Sequence record: PP464953.1
Length of the DNA stretch: 64,000 nucleotides
Source: Escherichia phage ECP2309
Reading direction: 5' to 3' (one strand)
Of this stretch, positions 3,430 through 34,498 are shown piece by piece. A program made the position numbers and the translations under genes. The notes below the pieces were generated by a model. It was not told where the DNA came from. It ran no database searches and saw only the letters and a list, made by a program, of their open reading frames with translations. Within the stretch, counting starts at the first letter, position 1. Every line of letters begins with the position of its first letter.

Positions 3430-3574
3430 TATCGCGCCTAAAACAATGAGTTAATATATAACACCAGATCGCTGACTACCAGGACAACATTAATCAGCAC
3501 ATACCTAACCATAAAGGGAAAGATCGCCAACATTGCCGCCACGATCCCCATGGTAATAATTATCTTTCTCATGG

Positions 3575-7601: not shown

Positions 7602-7982
7602 TTAAAAATTATCGCCGTAAATCTTTCCGCTTTCTACCCATACCACCACGCGAGGCATACTATCCCACACGTCTTGTTTTAGATTGAGCGCGTGCAATTC
7701 TTCGGTGGTGCTCATACCGGGCACGGGCTGATTGTATACTGCAAAACGACCACCCGCATAATCATAGGCCAGGGTTAAATCACACTGGATCATCTTTTTG
7801 ATCATGGCATTAAGCATGGCGTTAGCCGCATACTGATCACGTTTTAAAGGCAACTCTTTGATTAGTTTGCGATAGTTTTCGATATGGTCGCACACTGTTT
7901 CACGCGGAAGATCTTTCATATCTTCACGGAATGTAACCAGGTTAAACATAACGGTGTCAATAGCCTTGGTAGTGGTTTTCAT
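7602..7982 (-). CDS. hypothetical early protein
   Basis: track ORF 126 aa; SD AAGAGGA. Confidence 0.6.
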   Translation of the reverse strand: MKTTTKAIDTVMFNLVTFREDMKDLPRETVCDHIENYRKLIKELPLKRDQYAANAMLNAMIKKMIQCDLTLAYDYAGGRFAVYNQPVPGMSTTEELHALNLKQDVWDSMPRVVVWVESGKIYGDNF

Positions 7983-8071
7983 GATTTTATCCTCTTTGTT
8001 TTGTGTGGGGCAAGACGTTTGCCCCTTGAGTTTTTAATATAGCAGGTTTTTAGATTATTGCAACACTTTAT

Positions 8072-16734: not shown

Positions 16735-16765
16735 ATACAAAAATGCCCCACCCTTTCGGGTAGGG
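16735..16765 (-). terminator. rho-independent terminator after the SSB-like gene
   Basis: stem CCCTACCC/GGGTGGGG with GAAA loop followed on minus strand by CATTTTTGTAT. Confidence 0.55.
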
Positions 16766-16781
16766 CTATGTTAACTAGATG

Positions 16782-18008
16782 TTAAAAAGGTATGTCATCA
16801 TCAAAGGCGTACTGTGCCGGATTCTGATCCATCGGGTCGTCTTCCGCATCATCTACAGGAGGAGCGTCTACAGTGTTTTGCTGTGGGGCGGCTTCCTGTT
16901 TGGCAGCTTGAGGCTCTTGATGGTCAGTGGCTCCAGCACCGTTCTTGATCCAATCATACAACGGTTCAGCAAGATTAGTCAAGACATCTTTTGCCTCTGC
17001 AGTAATTGCTACTGCAAAATCATCAACTTTCGTTTTCTTGTCAATACGGCGACAAGCGTTCAATACCGCATTACCAACACTGGCACCTACTTCATCTTCA
17101 GTTCGGTTAGTGGCTTGAGCGTACTCTTTCTTAAGCTCGATGGTGACCACGTGCAGTGTTTTAGCCACATCTAAAGGGCTGTCAATCTTAAACCCGCGAT
17201 CCAGGATGATCTGCAATGCATTGATACTGTGCCCTGTCTCTACACCGATGGGGTCGTAAGAGGATTTACGCTTACCACCAGAACCTTGTGTACCGTTCTC
17301 TGCTTTAGGCGGGTAGGCCTTGAAGCCGCTGATAATATTCCCGGTGTCTTTGTCAACAATAGCTGCAACACGACCGCCAACCACCAGGTCTTTAAGCTGC
17401 TCATCAGAGACAACCATAGCACCTTCACCAATCTTGTGATCATTGACAGTAACCACGTTGCCAACAATCTGAGTCACATCACCATAGATGCGTAAAACGT
17501 CCTGATTGGCATTCTGCTGAGGTTTCTGCTTCTGGCCTTGTGATTGTGTGCCTTGTTGCTGTTTTTGTTGCTGTGGAGCTGCTGGAGCCTCTCCTGCCCC
17601 CAACTTAACCATTTTAGCCAGTGAGCCTTTGTAGTAGGTCTTGCCGTTATGCTCGTTTGCCTTCAAAGGGATATTTACGATCCATCCTGGCGTTACGGTT
17701 TCCCACTTGTCGTCAATTTTAACAGAGACGGAGTCTTGATGACCAGGCTTAAGCAGCTTATCACCCATACTGATCCAAACTTCTTCACCACCTTGGAGCA
17801 GGTTATCAGAGGAGTCCAGTTCAGAAATCAGTAAAGAGATGGTGTGGCTGGATTCAATTTTCTTACCTTGCCACACAGTGGTTTTAATACCTGTTGTAGG
17901 ATCAGCACCTTTAATGGGCTTGATGCTGACACGTTTAATCATACCGTGAGCCAGTAAAACAGTTTCACGCGGATTCATCGGGTTGGCAAATTGTTGAATA
18001 ACGCTCAT
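16782..18008 (-). CDS. putative ssDNA-binding protein with SSB-type C-terminal tip
   Basis: ends ...AFDDDIPF, the E. coli SSB C-terminal motif, after a Q/P-rich acidic linker; track ORF trimmed to ATG (M50) with AAGGAG 7 nt upstream, start overlapping the upstream stop (TAATG). Confidence 0.65.
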   Translation of the reverse strand: MSVIQQFANPMNPRETVLLAHGMIKRVSIKPIKGADPTTGIKTTVWQGKKIESSHTISLLISELDSSDNLLQGGEEVWISMGDKLLKPGHQDSVSVKIDDKWETVTPGWIVNIPLKANEHNGKTYYKGSLAKMVKLGAGEAPAAPQQQKQQQGTQSQGQKQKPQQNANQDVLRIYGDVTQIVGNVVTVNDHKIGEGAMVVSDEQLKDLVVGGRVAAIVDKDTGNIISGFKAYPPKAENGTQGSGGKRKSSYDPIGVETGHSINALQIILDRGFKIDSPLDVAKTLHVVTIELKKEYAQATNRTEDEVGASVGNAVLNACRRIDKKTKVDDFAVAITAEAKDVLTNLAEPLYDWIKNGAGATDHQEPQAAKQEAAPQQNTVDAPPVDDAEDDPMDQNPAQYAFDDDIPF

Positions 18009-18373
18009 TATTTGTCTCCTTGTTCTTCGTTGGTGTTTGCTGTGTGTGCAAACCCTGCTTGAATTAATTTGTCCTGCACTTGAGCCAACAGGCCCATTGC
18101 AAAACTTGTCGTCCCAGAAAGGGCCATTAGCATATCTCGTTGCTGAGCTACCCAACCTAAGGCATAATCTAAACGACGATATTTTTCTTCTTCGCGCAGA
18201 GCCTGAAATAACTGTTCAGCCTCTGGTTGTTGTGTGAGCTCCTGAAGTCTTCCCATAAAAGAAGAAAGTACCAGCAGAAGAGACACTTGATCTTTGCTTA
18301 ACCCTAAGAAAAATTCTTGAGGTTGTTCTTGCTCGTTCATCGCAACCGACGCTTGATCGTTCATTTGTTCCAT
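18008..18373 (-). CDS. hypothetical protein
   Basis: track ORF trimmed to M16 with SD GGAG. Confidence 0.5.
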   Translation of the reverse strand: MEQMNDQASVAMNEQEQPQEFFLGLSKDQVSLLLVLSSFMGRLQELTQQPEAEQLFQALREEEKYRRLDYALGWVAQQRDMLMALSGTTSFAMGLLAQVQDKLIQAGFAHTANTNEEQGDK

Positions 18374-21211: not shown

Positions 21212-23989
21212 TTAGTGACAATCGCCCCAGTTACGACCGCACAAGTATTCACCTGTGATCTGGAACGGAACGCCCATCATTTTAGAAGCCTGCCAGAAGC
21301 AATGCACCACCATTTCGCCCACAGGGCTCCAGATAAGTTCAAGCTTTCCGTCATCGTTCAAGATAGGATCGTATACCGTATTTCCGTCCTTGTCAACCAT
21401 TTCGTTTCCATCCTCATCTTTGCGTGCCTTTTTGTACTTATGACCGTCGAACACATGAAGTTTAGCCTCCTGCTTGGCCTTAAATGTTTCCAGCTCTTCA
21501 ATTGTGTCGAAGGTGTATACGGTTTTATACTTAGGTGTGTCAGGCACTTGAAGCTGATATTCGTCATGGTAATAAATAATACGACGAACACCTTCATCAT
21601 ACCATCCACGCTTCACCATTTGGTGGTGCATGAGGATTCCGACCAAGTCGCACAACGATGCACCGCCATTTTGCTGATATGCATTAAGCAAAGAGTGTTT
21701 AGAGCGGGTCCAAATGGCATGCCCGTCAAAAGAGTAGATAAATTTCTTACCTGTTGCTTCCCAGAATTTCTCCAGATCCTCTTTACGCCCCTTAAGGCCT
21801 GGGTTGGCATCCCAGAGAGCATCAATTACTCTCTGTCCAAGTTCTGGAGAGATATCTAGCATATCTGCAACTTTATCTTTTTGTGCCCCGTACATAACCC
21901 CATATGTGACAGGCTTACCATCGTTACGAGACACCTCTCTACCTGCTACTTTTGTATATGCCTCAGCATTGTTTTGGTGCGCGTCCCCGTTACTTACAAC
22001 ATCATAATACAGACCGTTGTCAAACTCAAAGGCACCCCAGGCCCCGATGAGCTGCTCTAAGTTGGACCCGTCAATACCGATCTCAAAGTATCCCGGAGGA
22101 ACACCCCACAGACTACGCATCTCTTTACCCATAACCACTTTAGGAGATGGTTTAGGCATGTTTGCACAAATACTATGTTTCTGTCTGGAAGTGTTTGTTA
22201 ATCCAGAACTTTTAGCAGGAAGCTTGTGGTCAATCTTCAAACGTGGATGATTAAGAAGACCAGTATCAACCTTATCTTCCTTGATTGGATCAAGGACCGA
22301 TCTGCGGTTTCGCAATGATAACCACAAAACGATATCTTTAGCCATCTCTCCGTTCAATTTTTCAAGATTCGGGCACAGGTGTCCAAACGTATCTTTCAGT
22401 TGCGGAGAAGTAATAAGCGCTCTGGCTTTTCTACGTATCTTCCCAAACACTTCCTTTTTAATCCTTTCTGAGTTAGGGAAGCTTCGGAACTTATGCACAG
22501 TTGTCTGGAACTTGGCATCAGTTTTGTTCCAGAAGTTGATAATTAGATCACAATACTCTGACTCTAAAAGCTCGTCCATATATGCATATACTCGTGCATC
22601 AACATCTGCATCAGGTAAAGCTTTCTTCTTACTATCCTTAGTTACATCCTTAGTTCTCCACATTGTTGGGAGCCAACCAGCACTGATCAGGTATCGCTTG
22701 ATGTCGTCCTGATTGCTGATTTTCATAGGTATCTTGCAGTCAGGCATTCGCTTCTGCTGTAGGTCACTTATCGCCTGATCCATCAGCTCTTTAGGTAAAG
22801 GGTGTGGTGTAGAAGTTCCTTTGATATACCCCCTCAAGAAATCAGCCATCTTATCGGGGTCTTTACAGCCCATCTCTTCACACCATTTTATCCCCATCTT
22901 ACTTACATCCCCTGTGGAGGTAAATGCTCGCTTAGGAGGGGCTTTAAATTCTAAAGCACTCATGTCTACAGGATAGCCAAGCTTGTCTTTTAACCATTTC
23001 CAACCATTATTGGAGATTGTCCCATCTTGGTTAAACGGCTTTTCAGGGAACTTAGGCCGTTGAGACATTGATAGCTCTTTTAAAGGAAGTTGTGGTTCAA
23101 CACGATCAGCGATCTCTTTCATCCACGCATCGCAGCGGTCACGTAAAGCAATAGCCCCATCTATGTCGAAATACACCCCCTGTCGAGCCTGCAGCTCCAT
23201 CAGGAAGTGCTGTAACATGCCTCGGCGTAATGCGTTCTTCCAGGTGATCTTCTTGAAGCCTTTCGGCTTCTCTTTGGCAGGATCGTACATAAAGTTCTGC
23301 ATGTCAGATTTGCCGTAGAATACACCTTTTGATTCAGCTACCAACTCCTTCCAGAGCAACTCCTGAATGATAACGTCCTCGAACACACGATCCACATACT
23401 TCCACAGCGGAAGCTCACGCCAGTCATCGATTTGAACTTTCTGGTTACCAAGGGCATAGCCCCATGCCATAAGGCCATGAGGCCCAACAGGCTGCATTTT
23501 CTTGGTAACTGGATTGAATACTGCGTCCGGACAACCTTTTGGCAAAGGGCGGTCAGGCCACAAGATTCGACTCATCGCTAACGTATCAAACAGATTAACC
23601 TGGTGGTCGTTGATAGTTCCCATGCATTTAGGATCACGGAACATATCAAAATGAATACCGGATAATCTTTCCATCAGCATAAAGTCGTAACTGTAGCAGT
23701 TATGGCAGTTCAAAGCCGTAGGTGACCAGTCTGAATTGCCTGTAAGCCAGCCTTCCAACTCTGAAAAATCTGCTATGCGAGCCTCAAAATCTGTATAAAG
23801 GGTCTTCTTTGCCAGAATGAAGTTCTTAGCTTTCTCCACATCCTCTTCAGAGTAGTGTGTGCGGTCATTTAGGGGAAGGAACAGCATAAAACGGTTCTTA
23901 TTCAGCTCTTTAAACAAACCGCAGTGATAATAAAGATCTGGGTCTTCCAGCAAGCCAGAGGCCTCAAAATCGAACGACCACATGCTCAT
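21212..23989 (-). CDS. DNA polymerase, family A (Pol I-like) with 3'-5' exonuclease
   Basis: 925 aa; N-terminal FDFEASGL (Exo I-like DxE); motif B-like RNDGKPVTYGVMYGAQ; motif C-like YYHDEYQ. Confidence 0.85.
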   Translation of the reverse strand: MSMWSFDFEASGLLEDPDLYYHCGLFKELNKNRFMLFLPLNDRTHYSEEDVEKAKNFILAKKTLYTDFEARIADFSELEGWLTGNSDWSPTALNCHNCYSYDFMLMERLSGIHFDMFRDPKCMGTINDHQVNLFDTLAMSRILWPDRPLPKGCPDAVFNPVTKKMQPVGPHGLMAWGYALGNQKVQIDDWRELPLWKYVDRVFEDVIIQELLWKELVAESKGVFYGKSDMQNFMYDPAKEKPKGFKKITWKNALRRGMLQHFLMELQARQGVYFDIDGAIALRDRCDAWMKEIADRVEPQLPLKELSMSQRPKFPEKPFNQDGTISNNGWKWLKDKLGYPVDMSALEFKAPPKRAFTSTGDVSKMGIKWCEEMGCKDPDKMADFLRGYIKGTSTPHPLPKELMDQAISDLQQKRMPDCKIPMKISNQDDIKRYLISAGWLPTMWRTKDVTKDSKKKALPDADVDARVYAYMDELLESEYCDLIINFWNKTDAKFQTTVHKFRSFPNSERIKKEVFGKIRRKARALITSPQLKDTFGHLCPNLEKLNGEMAKDIVLWLSLRNRRSVLDPIKEDKVDTGLLNHPRLKIDHKLPAKSSGLTNTSRQKHSICANMPKPSPKVVMGKEMRSLWGVPPGYFEIGIDGSNLEQLIGAWGAFEFDNGLYYDVVSNGDAHQNNAEAYTKVAGREVSRNDGKPVTYGVMYGAQKDKVADMLDISPELGQRVIDALWDANPGLKGRKEDLEKFWEATGKKFIYSFDGHAIWTRSKHSLLNAYQQNGGASLCDLVGILMHHQMVKRGWYDEGVRRIIYYHDEYQLQVPDTPKYKTVYTFDTIEELETFKAKQEAKLHVFDGHKYKKARKDEDGNEMVDKDGNTVYDPILNDDGKLELIWSPVGEMVVHCFWQASKMMGVPFQITGEYLCGRNWGDCH

Positions 23990-24047: not shown

Positions 24048-26126
24048 TTAAAAAGGTGTTTCGTCGTCTTCAAAACCAGGAACGTGGTTAGAGGACGGAT
24101 CATCATACTGAAGATCTTCCTGTGTGTCAACAGGGTTAACAGCAGGAGTTATAACCTTATCAGCCACAACCTTGCCCACAGGTGTTTCTACAACTGCATG
24201 CTCCTGATCCTCAAACATAGCTTGAGGTCTCCAAACAACCTCTCCACCTTCCCCGTCTGTAAACATCTGCATCTCTTTATCCCAATACCAATTGCTGGCA
24301 TCGTGGAACTTGCCTGTGTGGGGATCCATAACTAGGGTGTCCGCAATACCTAAGGTTTTTGCTGGGCGGTTTTTAAGACCTACCAGCCGGACACGTCCAC
24401 GGGAACGATCCACCATCTCCTCTGCCTCTACCCCGACAACCACCCAGCTAAGTTGCTCCAATCCGGCACTACCGCGAAGGTTCTCTTTTCGCACAGGGTA
24501 CCAGAAAGGTAACGGATTTCCATCCTTATCCTTCGGAGGTACAATCTCTGTGCGCTTCAGGTGAGCAATCACCAAGATAAACACATTAAACTGCTTACAG
24601 AACGCGGCTAGTTGAGTCATAGCCATGTCAAGCTCTTTACGCTCATCCTTAACATTAAGCCCTGAAATCACCATAGACAAGTGATCCAGCACAATGTAAC
24701 GGCAGTGATACAGGCACACCATTTGTTTAAGCTTAGTGATCAGCTCATCTACAGGGATGGAGCCGAAATGCTTGAACACTTTGATTTTTCCGGCCTTGGC
24801 CCAAGATTGATGAATCTCAGCGTGCTCCTGATCGGTCAGGAACTGACTGGGGTCTTCAACAAACTCTTTAACATCAAACCCCAGCTGGTTAGCGTACAGA
24901 GAGTTGATTGCTTCCTCAGGATCCTCTTCAAGGTGAATCAGGCACAGGCGATCATCCTCTTCATAATCATCAGCTTTAGGGCATGTTGGGTCCATCAAGT
25001 ATCTTGCAATGCAATGTTCCAGCTTCTTGGCTACAGTTGTTTTACCACCGCCAGACGGGCCTGTCAGCATCATCAAGGTGCCTTTGTGGAGTCCTTTCAG
25101 CATCTTCTGCAGTTTAGGGAACTCTGCACTAATATCCACGCCATTGGAAGTCTTCTTACGAAGAGATTCAATGGAGAAGTCTTCTAAATCAGATACAGCA
25201 TCAGGCACATATTTGACTGGGTGACGGAACATGTTGACAATATCTTCCAGCTTTTTAGCCTTCAGCATGTCACGAATATCTTTTACACCATCAGGGTCGT
25301 TTACCTCACCTGGGTATTCCACGTGGTAAACGTTGTCAGCCATCAAAAATGCTGCGATATTATGCGTAGCTTCAACACCTTTGATAACGTGTTTTTGCTT
25401 CTCTACCTCGTTAGCTGCATCGTTGTCCATTGCAAGGACTACTGTTCCGTAGCTACGGATAAATTTCTCATTGTTCGCAAAAGTGTCTACGGCGTTTGCA
25501 CACCCGCAGTTAATTCCGACAAAAGGCAGGCATGGTTTTCCTGCCAGATCACCGCCGTTGATAACTGCATCAATCCCATCCTGGACTTCTTTAGCCCACT
25601 GCTTCACCTTCGCTGGGGCTTTAGCATTGGTGAGAATACCTTTTACTTGTACCTGATATGCAGCCTGCCACGCTGCAATAACATCTCCTTCCCCCTCACA
25701 AACGTTAATCTGCTTGCGGTTGTTGGAGGATGCACACAGCTTTTGACCAAACATCTGGGAGTTGGCCTTTACTATGCCGACAACCGAGAAATGGCCCCTT
25801 TGCTCTTTAGGGATTGTCCAGTCACGCTTTTTAAAGCCAGATAGATTACCGTAGCGGTCATAATACGGAAAGTAGGTGGCAGTAACAGTTACGCCATCCT
25901 CTTGGGATAGCGATGATCGTACACCAAAATATTGTGCAGCCATCAGTCCAATATTTTGTTGTGGAACAGGGACAATTTTAGTATTTTCTAAAACAGTCTC
26001 TACAGTTTCAACTTCTTTTTCATCACGATAGTCTCGTTTCACACTTCCCCCACTTTTATACTTAGTTGCTTTCGGGTTTGGCTCACCGAAACGGTTGTAT
26101 GCAGATGCCATGAATTTACTGCCCAT
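24048..26126 (-). CDS. DNA primase (TOPRIM) fused to DnaB-like replicative helicase
   Basis: 692 aa; TOPRIM-like CEGEGD and MDNDAANE; Walker A GPSGGGKTT; Walker B-like VLDHL. Confidence 0.8.
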   Translation of the reverse strand: MGSKFMASAYNRFGEPNPKATKYKSGGSVKRDYRDEKEVETVETVLENTKIVPVPQQNIGLMAAQYFGVRSSLSQEDGVTVTATYFPYYDRYGNLSGFKKRDWTIPKEQRGHFSVVGIVKANSQMFGQKLCASSNNRKQINVCEGEGDVIAAWQAAYQVQVKGILTNAKAPAKVKQWAKEVQDGIDAVINGGDLAGKPCLPFVGINCGCANAVDTFANNEKFIRSYGTVVLAMDNDAANEVEKQKHVIKGVEATHNIAAFLMADNVYHVEYPGEVNDPDGVKDIRDMLKAKKLEDIVNMFRHPVKYVPDAVSDLEDFSIESLRKKTSNGVDISAEFPKLQKMLKGLHKGTLMMLTGPSGGGKTTVAKKLEHCIARYLMDPTCPKADDYEEDDRLCLIHLEEDPEEAINSLYANQLGFDVKEFVEDPSQFLTDQEHAEIHQSWAKAGKIKVFKHFGSIPVDELITKLKQMVCLYHCRYIVLDHLSMVISGLNVKDERKELDMAMTQLAAFCKQFNVFILVIAHLKRTEIVPPKDKDGNPLPFWYPVRKENLRGSAGLEQLSWVVVGVEAEEMVDRSRGRVRLVGLKNRPAKTLGIADTLVMDPHTGKFHDASNWYWDKEMQMFTDGEGGEVVWRPQAMFEDQEHAVVETPVGKVVADKVITPAVNPVDTQEDLQYDDPSSNHVPGFEDDETPF

Positions 26127-32515: not shown

Positions 32516-34498
32516 TTATTTGATGTTATTCTTTGTATCAATCAGTTCACGGTATTCAATCATAGCAGGAGTGTCCCAATATTTCAAGCCTACATGCTTC
32601 AAAAGTGGATATTTCTTTTCCAATCTTGCAATATAGGCCTTCCCGCACTTAACCCGGTTGGCGATTAAGATTTTGGCACGATGATTTAGCTCACCGTACT
32701 TCCACGTGGTGCTACCTTCCCACTTGTGAAAATGTGGCCGATAACTTCCAAAATCCTGCATGGGGATAATTTTACCTAACTGTCTGTACAGGCTGTCATA
32801 TGAAGTTTCATTTGCTGCGCGAGTTAGTAAGAATTTCCAAGCATCCTCTTTCAACAAATGTTCCACATTCTTCTCTGTAACATATTGGCAATCAGGATCA
32901 GTCCAAAGCAGACGAGATTCCGACACCAGGTACAGATCTTCCCCTTCAGGAATCTGGAGTGCCGCACGCACACGGTCATAATCTTGCTGGTAGATGTTGC
33001 TCATCTGCCCTAGCCAACAACTTCCGCGTTGGATATCCCCCTCATACGGTATGCAGTGCTTAATCTTCCTGAACTCTGCCTTAGTAATACGCTCACGCCG
33101 GAAGTAACCATCCTTCTCAAGTTTTTTAACCCAATAGCCTGGTTCGTAACGGGTTTTGGTTTCACCTTTCTTCGTAGGTCGGCGTGGAAGCTCCGATAAC
33201 AATTTGACCGTATCTGCAAAAAACGGATGGTGTGCCGCCTCTTTAAACTCTTTCACCAGATCCGTGTTACGGCAATAGAAAACGTTGCGTCCGGTAATCT
33301 CGCTTAAGTAGTTACACTTATTCCGGTTATATTTGCCGTCTCCGTCGTTAAATACTAAATAAACTCCCCGTAAGAATTCTACCTTTCCGTAGCAGGCGTA
33401 ACCTATGCGGCCTTTATTTAAGCCGCCAGCGAAGATCTCGCAGTCCCCCAAATTTCCTAGCCCTGTTTCTTCCCAGCGGTCATACATAAAATTCTTACCG
33501 AAGATGTGCCCGAACACTCCACTGTTCTTCATCATCTCGCGTGCTTCTGAGGATGTTTTTGCTGTCTCCAGTTCTGCAACAACTTCTGCTCCACGAAGGC
33601 GAATGCCTTCTTTGACAAAAGCTTCCAAACGCTCTTGGAATCCACCATCGTCGTGACCTTCTATGGTCCATTCACGCCCTGGGTTAATATTGCAATCTCC
33701 GATAGGGATCTCTACACAAATTGCAGGATAATCTATTAGTGTCTCCAGGAACTTAGAACGGTAAGGTTGGTGACCCATTACCACACGACTCTCGTCAGAG
33801 CTGGTATAACCCTTCAGGATGGTCATTTTCCAACCATCCTTCTCGTAGTGATACTGCGCCTCAACCTTGTCACCTTCCAGCATCTTACTGGTCATAGGGT
33901 CGGTAACGGTAAACGGAAACTTTGCATAGCGTAGGCATGACGCAATAGCAGTGCGATATTTCAGGACATGCTCTTTCTTAACATGGAACTGAACTTTTAC
34001 CCCGTTGTGCTCTTCAGTCTTCCGCTCGCGGATCTTGGTAACGTTTGGGATACCCTGATCCAAGAACAATAGATATGTGCTTTCAACACCATTGTGCACA
34101 CTGATAACATCGAAAGTGTCCACCATGCTGAACGGAGCCTTTGAACCAACACCTTTATTACCTACCAGAGCGTTGCTGTTGCGCTTGGTTGACTCCCCGA
34201 GGTTCATGAAAGTGTTGCGGACCATCTCTTCTGACATGCCCAATCCAACGTCCTGCACAAAGAAGTATGGTTCAAGGTCTGTAGGGGAGTGAATGATGAT
34301 CGGTACATCACCCCGTCCAGACTCAACATGAGAGTCCACAGCATTGAAGATTGGTTCACGGCAGCTTGCCAGCACCTTATCTTCGTAAATCCCTTTAATG
34401 ATTAGCCCAAAAGTCTCTTTGTTCAGAGAAATTGAGCCCCTGGTGACCTCCATATTTCCGGTTAGTACTGCTTTAGTTTCATTACTGTTTACAATCAT
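32516..34498 (-). CDS. GHKL-superfamily (Hsp90/MORC-type) ATPase fusion protein
   Basis: 660 aa; N-box-like REPIFNAVDS, G1 DVGLGMS, G2 GNKGVGSKAPF; LIIKGIYEDK resembles the Hsp90 signature; C-terminal ~500 aa unassigned. Confidence 0.6.
   Translation of the reverse strand: MIVNSNETKAVLTGNMEVTRGSISLNKETFGLIIKGIYEDKVLASCREPIFNAVDSHVESGRGDVPIIIHSPTDLEPYFFVQDVGLGMSEEMVRNTFMNLGESTKRNSNALVGNKGVGSKAPFSMVDTFDVISVHNGVESTYLLFLDQGIPNVTKIRERKTEEHNGVKVQFHVKKEHVLKYRTAIASCLRYAKFPFTVTDPMTSKMLEGDKVEAQYHYEKDGWKMTILKGYTSSDESRVVMGHQPYRSKFLETLIDYPAICVEIPIGDCNINPGREWTIEGHDDGGFQERLEAFVKEGIRLRGAEVVAELETAKTSSEAREMMKNSGVFGHIFGKNFMYDRWEETGLGNLGDCEIFAGGLNKGRIGYACYGKVEFLRGVYLVFNDGDGKYNRNKCNYLSEITGRNVFYCRNTDLVKEFKEAAHHPFFADTVKLLSELPRRPTKKGETKTRYEPGYWVKKLEKDGYFRRERITKAEFRKIKHCIPYEGDIQRGSCWLGQMSNIYQQDYDRVRAALQIPEGEDLYLVSESRLLWTDPDCQYVTEKNVEHLLKEDAWKFLLTRAANETSYDSLYRQLGKIIPMQDFGSYRPHFHKWEGSTTWKYGELNHRAKILIANRVKCGKAYIARLEKKYPLLKHVGLKYWDTPAMIEYRELIDTKNNIK

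Follow-up and report, generated by a model that had tools for sequence, protein, structure and literature searches.

The gene closest to the one considered here was described in phage RudolfGeigy/Bas52, whose mutants escaping the DRT10 (UG17) reverse-transcriptase defence were both altered in Bas52_0087, by the substitutions D252V and Y351C (bioRxiv 10.64898/2026.04.29.721553). [quoted passage not shown] The other system that invites comparison is the replisome of phage T7. There gp2.5 and gp4 each have an acidic tail with a terminal Phe, and both tails engage one basic patch on the polymerase; it is to the front basic patch that the gp2.5 tail is anchored, and PDB 6P7E shows a DTDF peptide as a stand-in for the tail of gp4 (PMC12339929). 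We report here on an SSB-like gene of Escherichia phage ECP2309 (sequence record PP464953.1), found in a stretch of 64,000 nucleotides which we call the window. It lies at 16782-18008, as an initial annotation made from the sequence had correctly placed it, and runs on the minus strand, which that annotation had left unstated.

We propose, with a probability of roughly 70%, that the SSB-like gene encodes the phage's own replicative SSB, and that this SSB is of a non-canonical kind. We read it so because its predicted OB folds have SSBs as their best structural matches, because it stands among replication genes, and because we found no other SSB in the phage. The core of this finding is already known, having been reported (as prediction plus genetics) for an ortholog that is 97% identical: Bas52_0087 (MZ501102, 75981-77207) and the window protein agree at 396 of 408 residues, D252 and Y351 being present in both. 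We regard the two as the same gene in sister phages, with the same length of 408 amino acids, the same FDDDIPF tip and no biological difference. In the parts of the preprint that we read, we did not find the C-terminal helical bundle (D3 below) set apart as a domain, nor the distribution across the family, the tip on the primase-helicase, the HNH cassette or a DNA-binding assay. SSB goes unmentioned in an earlier DRT10 preprint, and two retron papers that name Vequintavirinae and SSB are not about this protein.

The 408-residue product ends in ...NPAQYAFDDDIPF (also written ...DDPMDQNPAQYAFDDDIPF), and the final seven residues of its terminal QYAFDDDIPF are those of E. coli SSB (...PPMDFDDDIPF, PDB chain 1eqq_A), so that the SSB tip recognised by the initial annotation is confirmed. 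The Q/P-rich acidic stretch that it had seen before the tip is equally well borne out: amino acids 359-408 (16785-16934, minus strand) form a tail that is predicted to be disordered (predicted local distance difference test score, pLDDT, <50), has a net charge of -12 and contains 14 Q or P among its 50 residues, the FDDDIPF tip itself being residues 402-408 (16785-16805). Among all open reading frames (ORFs) of at least 60 amino acids in the window, only the SSB-like protein and the primase-helicase have an acidic C-terminus of this -PF kind. Elsewhere in the family an acidic tail with an [ILV]PF end is close to universal: 110 of 146 cluster representatives have a PF C-terminus (the remainder being mostly fragments or extended), the acidic-[ILV]PF end is retained in homologs down to about 20% identity, and several members from enterobacterial phages copy PPMDFDDDIPF exactly. 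Since this end is kept across the family, the tip is not a chance match; judged by these comparisons, it is a selected and defining family trait.

The window belongs to a Vequintavirus of the rV5/FV3-like kind. Its SSB-like gene is 100% identical to that of Escherichia phage ECP2303, where it is annotated as hypothetical, and 93-98% identical across 115 Vequintavirus records (rV5, FV3 and relatives), in which the annotation, where present, is "hypothetical protein". The protein is the ortholog of rV5 ORF214 and of Bas52_0087 (QXV84166.1), and a full-length member of PHROG 4477 (phrog_4477, "unknown function"; E 1.5e-172, profile positions 1-393 of 393). At the protein level PVP-SE1-like relatives are about 38% identical and phiTE/CR9-like relatives about 26%; phi92-like relatives give a partial match, and there a 315-amino-acid homolog is named "single-stranded DNA-binding protein" in a few records. 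Searching 90% clusters yielded 57 homologs, and a profile search over 1.84 billion representatives gave 248 family representatives at E <= 1e-3. These fall into two architectures, a long one of about 350-430 amino acids and a short one of about 260-300 that lacks the middle domain; the window protein shows the PHROG 4477 arrangement of an N-terminal beta domain, a C-terminal four-helix bundle and an acidic [ILV]PF tail, the middle domain being optional. As a side observation, some 16-20 GenBank "Campylobacter phage" records (MG0656xx, host C. jejuni) match the E. coli Vequintavirus sequence of this gene with 93-98% identity; going by this, they are probably mislabelled or contaminating coliphages.

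By sequence, the body of the protein is unlike canonical SSB, in keeping with the initial annotation. Neither the SSB-like protein nor any of 107 family members matched Pfam, the bacterial SSB profile PF00436 included, and the protein had no match in NCBIfam. Against PDB sequences, queried with the single sequence and with the family profile, the tail alone matched E. coli SSB, while matches to cold-shock proteins were insignificant; no sequence or profile match to T7 gp2.5 or DUF2815 was found. Had a known phage SSB family matched clearly, this would have spoken against the divergent or mimicking protein first suggested; such a match was sought in vain, and the family appears so far to be without a link to the SSB families of Pfam, NCBIfam or PHROGs.

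Structure prediction is where the likeness to SSBs emerges. An AF2 model built from a 22-sequence alignment (A1) has a mean pLDDT of 74, its predicted template-modelling score (pTM) being low because of flexible linkers, and it contains three folded modules (D1, D2 and D3), with disorder in two linkers and in the tail. D1 (amino acids 1-140; 17589-18008, minus strand, as for all modules) is all-beta, a predicted OB fold with hairpin elaborations. Linker 1 (141-169; 17502-17588) is Q-rich, with a pLDDT of 29-37 and Q or P at 16 of 29 positions. D2 (170-233; 17310-17501) is a minimal five-strand barrel in which the model puts a short helix after strand 3 and before strand 4, the classic OB topology; it is found in the long form only (31 of 107 representatives). 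Linker 2 (234-250; 17259-17309) is basic (GGKRKSS) and predicted to be disordered, the model's disordered segment covering 237-250. D3 (251-358; 16935-17258) is modelled with a pLDDT of 88-96 as a four-helix bundle over residues 252-356, its helices spanning residues 253-270, 278-300, 304-321 and 328-355.

The OB-fold DNA-binding domain expected of a bacterial-type SSB is accordingly present in the model, and the best structural matches of the predicted OB folds are SSBs, with PriB, RPA32 and Stn1 lower and, for D1, with SSBs above RecO, which matches at the level of the fold only. The full model matched OB folds of RPA, SSB, PriB, RecO, RuvA and LEF-3 over 63-67 aligned residues at about 2 A; we infer that these matches belong to D2, as the same chains were aligned differently with D1 alone. 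Foldseek against BFVD returned homologs plus weak matches (E about 1e-3 to 3e-2) to proteins annotated as DUF2815 or other phage SSBs, among them a weak fold match to a DUF2815 protein at E 7.8e-4; we take these as likeness of fold, not membership of a family. We drew no conclusion from the full model's helical matches, to a serine acetyltransferase N-domain and to designed repeats, which are of a generic kind. The structure prediction for OB folds, proposed at the outset as a check on the divergent-SSB idea, has in this way come out in its favour.

Conservation gives some indication of how the modules may divide their labour. D1 keeps aromatic or basic residues at H55, K97, W102, H/Y120 and K123, together with glycines G22 and G108, and D1 is proposed, from the model, as the main domain binding single-stranded DNA (ssDNA). 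D3 is the best-conserved module of the family (D252, G255-x3-G259-H260, N263, K293, G308-x3-G312); H286 is conserved too, invariant only within alignment A1. We propose that D3 is an oligomerisation or partner-binding module, and its two GxxxG-type motifs suggest tight helix packing, which would fit oligomerisation. Both DRT10 escape positions fall within D3: in the model helix 1 is capped by D252, and Y351 comes close to where helix 4 ends, which, in an up-down bundle, would place the two at the same end. This placement agrees with the "putative oligomerization interface" of its authors.

The genomic setting is one of replication genes. The SSB-like gene lies 3 kb downstream of, and on the same strand as, genes for a family-A DNA polymerase (925 amino acids; 21212-23989, minus strand; PF00476 at E 1e-7, with a score slightly under the Pfam cutoff; annotated in rV5 as 'similar to T7 DNA polymerase') and a T7 gp4-like primase-helicase (692 amino acids; 24048-26126, minus strand; Pfam DnaB_C and AAA_25). 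In phi92-like phages it comes after the polymerase, and two unrelated contigs, 13 and 45 kb long, which carry the short form, have primase-helicase, polymerase, a few small ORFs and then the SSB-like gene, their polymerases showing a PF00476 match in one and a faint RNase_H_2 match in the other. The complete annotation of rV5 lists ligase, exonuclease, endonuclease VII, polymerase and primase-helicase and contains no SSB, and phmmer searches with E. coli SSB, T7 gp2.5 and T4 gp32 found no match among all ORFs of rV5 or of the window; for these reasons the SSB-like family is the sole SSB candidate that we found. Two further observations concern the neighbours. The polymerase is one 925-amino-acid ORF in the window, has 775 amino acids in rV5 (ORF228) and is a two-piece join in Bas52, which suggests annotation variation or an intervening element in some isolates; and in the distant 45-kb contig an ORF with a Pfam match to T7 gp5.9 (a RecBCD inhibitor), at 7837-8001, directly precedes the short-form homolog.

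Several points weigh against a replicative SSB acting through its tip. Binding of ssDNA is a prediction both here and in the preprint. With hhalign, D1, D2 and D3 each had a probability below 1% against a small SSB profile and T7 gp2.5, the reference sequences having been entered by hand; D1 is weakly basic (net charge +2) and D2 is acidic. In the preprint, Bas52_0087 expressed alone was non-toxic and did not trigger DRT10, which speaks mildly against a strong titration of host SSB partners. The main caveat for tip-centred mechanisms is that in about one in four Vequintavirus isolates, among them rV5, IPF is followed by 15 extra residues. Docking at the SSB C-terminus (SSB-Ct) requires the free carboxylate of the last Phe; a tip capped in this way should therefore dock poorly, and the existence of capped isolates implies that a free tip is not indispensable for phage growth.

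The extra residues are connected with a cassette encoding an HNH 'endonuclease VII', which in other Vequintavirus isolates inserts right after the IPF codons, and three states of the site can be told apart. The window has an empty site (16745-16810), with no HNH cassette. In bov22_2 (560-760 of the stretch compared) the HNH gene begins 8 nucleotides past the stop codon and the protein ends in DDSIPF. In rV5 (33385-34060 of the stretch compared) HNH (ORF213) is fused: the 15 residues APVGLQYGKSRIHAL are appended to IPF, and it is within this extension that the HNH gene has its start codon. The fused junction was found in 32 records, and HNH alone in 20 further ones. A cap with the motif PF-AP[IV]GLQY-x4-[IL][YH]x[LIF] also occurs on unrelated replication proteins of different phage families, with or without an HNH neighbour: the siphovirus ACG-M12 (1485-1563 of the stretch compared) has it on a canonical SSB with an HNH gene directly after, and there the true HNH start, as we read it, falls within the extension and upstream of the annotated ATG; in Klebsiella phage KpS8 (1485-1563 of the stretch compared) the primase-helicase, and in BME3 (3432-3510 of the stretch compared) the phi92-like homolog, have the same cap and no HNH. 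The cap codons vary synonymously while the peptide stays constant. That the cap is a mere DNA scar of the HNH element is opposed by these synonymous codons, by the kept peptide and by the HNH-free KpS8 and BME3, and the comparisons tentatively argue for selection on the peptide.

With these reservations, we suggest the following mechanism. D1, aided by D2 in the long form, would coat ssDNA at the phage fork, while D3, with its GxxxG-type motifs and the escape positions, would mediate self-association or contact with a partner, in place of the OB-OB interface by which bacterial SSB forms tetramers. With its free FDDDIPF-COOH end the protein could dock others that have an SSB-Ct pocket (host ExoI/SbcB, chi, PriA or RecQ), which would be drawn to the phage DNA or taken from host SSB by competition; this end may also dock the family-A polymerase of the phage, in the manner of the T7 gp2.5 and gp4 tails.

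This last step leads to the alternative that survives best, which concerns the partner of the tip and not the identity of the protein as an SSB, and which is compatible with host recruitment: that the tip acts mainly inside a T7-like replisome, both tails binding the basic patch of the family-A polymerase and the SSB's own DNA cleft, so that the likeness to the host tip would be partly convergent. The replisome is T7-like, with its gp4-like helicase and PolA, and the window primase-helicase has an acidic -PF tip of its own (...VPGFEDDETPF; GFEDDETPF at 24048-24074, minus strand), an acidic-x-PF end being found in 112 of 120 primase-helicase homologs, down to 42% identity and in Vibrio phages too. 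An acidic tail with a terminal aromatic residue, common to the protein and its cognate primase-helicase, is what is seen with gp2.5, and in T7 the two tails use one polymerase patch; gp2.5 carrying the E. coli SSB C-terminus reportedly still supports T7 (Kong and Richardson, 1998). The family-A polymerase is in our analysis a candidate phage partner of both tails, and docking there may be an alternative to, or go beside, recruitment of host proteins. However, FDDDIPF (in relatives, PPMDFDDDIPF) is closer to the host tip than a generic acidic tail with Phe would be, and the two distant contigs have a helicase ending in -KDF or without a tail, yet their SSB-like protein keeps DDDIPF; for the same reason the helicase -PF tail was rejected as a constant companion of the family. 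We consider a mainly T7-like use of the tip a real contender, though one with the odds somewhat against it.

A decoy or mimic is considerably less probable. The protein would then present many copies of the host tip to sequester or redirect host SSB-interacting proteins (ExoI, RecQ, PriA) or to stop host replication, with ssDNA binding secondary or absent, and both the exact copying of the host tail by members from enterobacterial phages, in some as far as PPMDFDDDIPF, and the tie to SbcB/ExoI with the competition proposed in the preprint would be accounted for. Against this stand the two predicted OB folds with SSBs as best matches, the conserved place in replication modules of a phage with no other SSB candidate found, the lack of toxicity on lone expression in the preprint, and the capped tip tolerated by many isolates, and a pure decoy role is unlikely. 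The initial annotation had left two options, that of a divergent SSB of the phage and that of a tip mimic; the first is therefore favoured, backed as it is by the predicted OB folds, the replication-gene neighbourhood and the failure to find a second SSB; a decoy or competition component may still form part of its action. A recombination mediator or annealing protein like RecO (an OB fold and a helical domain, often with a zinc finger), in which the OB fold is likewise followed by helices, is very improbable, given that SSBs outrank RecO for D1, that the neighbours are a polymerase and a helicase and not recombinases, that the 408-residue sequence contains no Cys4 motif of the RecO zinc-finger type, and that RecO binds the SSB tip and does not carry one, whereas the SSB-like protein carries the tip itself.

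If the gene does encode the replicative SSB of the phage, a further and distinctly speculative idea can be put forward, which we think will probably need revision: that the two host-SSB-like -PF tips, on the SSB-like protein and on the primase-helicase, make up a tip-based fork hub in Vequintavirinae and their relatives, with the DNA encoding the tip as the insertion point of HNH and with the cap as a possible switch of tip interactions, DRT10 recognition included. Such a hub would either recruit host SSB-interacting enzymes or share one pocket on the phage polymerase.

The gene's 408 codons run from 18008 to 16785 on the minus strand, with the ATG at 18008-18006 and a TAA stop at 16784-16782; a Shine-Dalgarno sequence, AAGGAG (18016-18021, minus strand), lies 7 nucleotides 5′ of the ATG, and a strong, G+C-rich hairpin with a T run, resembling an intrinsic terminator (16745-16766, minus strand) follows 16 nucleotides past the stop. 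The ATG overlaps by 1 nucleotide the TAA of an upstream 121-amino-acid ORF (TAATG), which suggests translational coupling of the two. This ORF (18008-18373, minus strand), which adjoins the SSB-like gene, has no Pfam match; it was considered as a conserved partner and dropped, since the ORF that lies upstream of the homolog in phi92-like phages is not similar to it.

The large and widespread rV5-, PVP-SE1-, phiTE- and phi92-like phages of E. coli, Klebsiella and Salmonella had no recognised SSB, and the PHROG 4477 family, which most GenBank records still label "hypothetical", would fill this gap. It also indicates that the docking tip of bacterial SSB can occur on a scaffold without sequence kinship to canonical SSB. 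According to the preprint, the protein is a sensed target of the antiphage reverse-transcriptase system DRT10, and our domain map, which puts both escape mutations in the bundle and not in the OB folds or the tip, shows which surface to probe; the tip on the primase-helicase offers a concrete alternative to the "host ExoI competition" model.

Considering the known systems together, the SSB-like protein shares with bacterial SSB (E. coli, PF00436) a disordered linker and a D-D-D-[IL]-P-F tip, but it has no detectable sequence homology to it, is 408 amino acids long as against about 178, and combines two predicted OB barrels with a four-helix bundle in one chain, so that it would presumably oligomerise via the bundle and not via OB-OB contacts. 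With T7 gp2.5 and DUF2815 proteins it has in common a T7-type replisome, an acidic tail ending in Phe and a similar tail on the helicase of the same phage. RPA and baculovirus LEF-3 are unrelated to it in sequence and are without a tip of the bacterial type, and the helical bundle has no identified counterpart in them.
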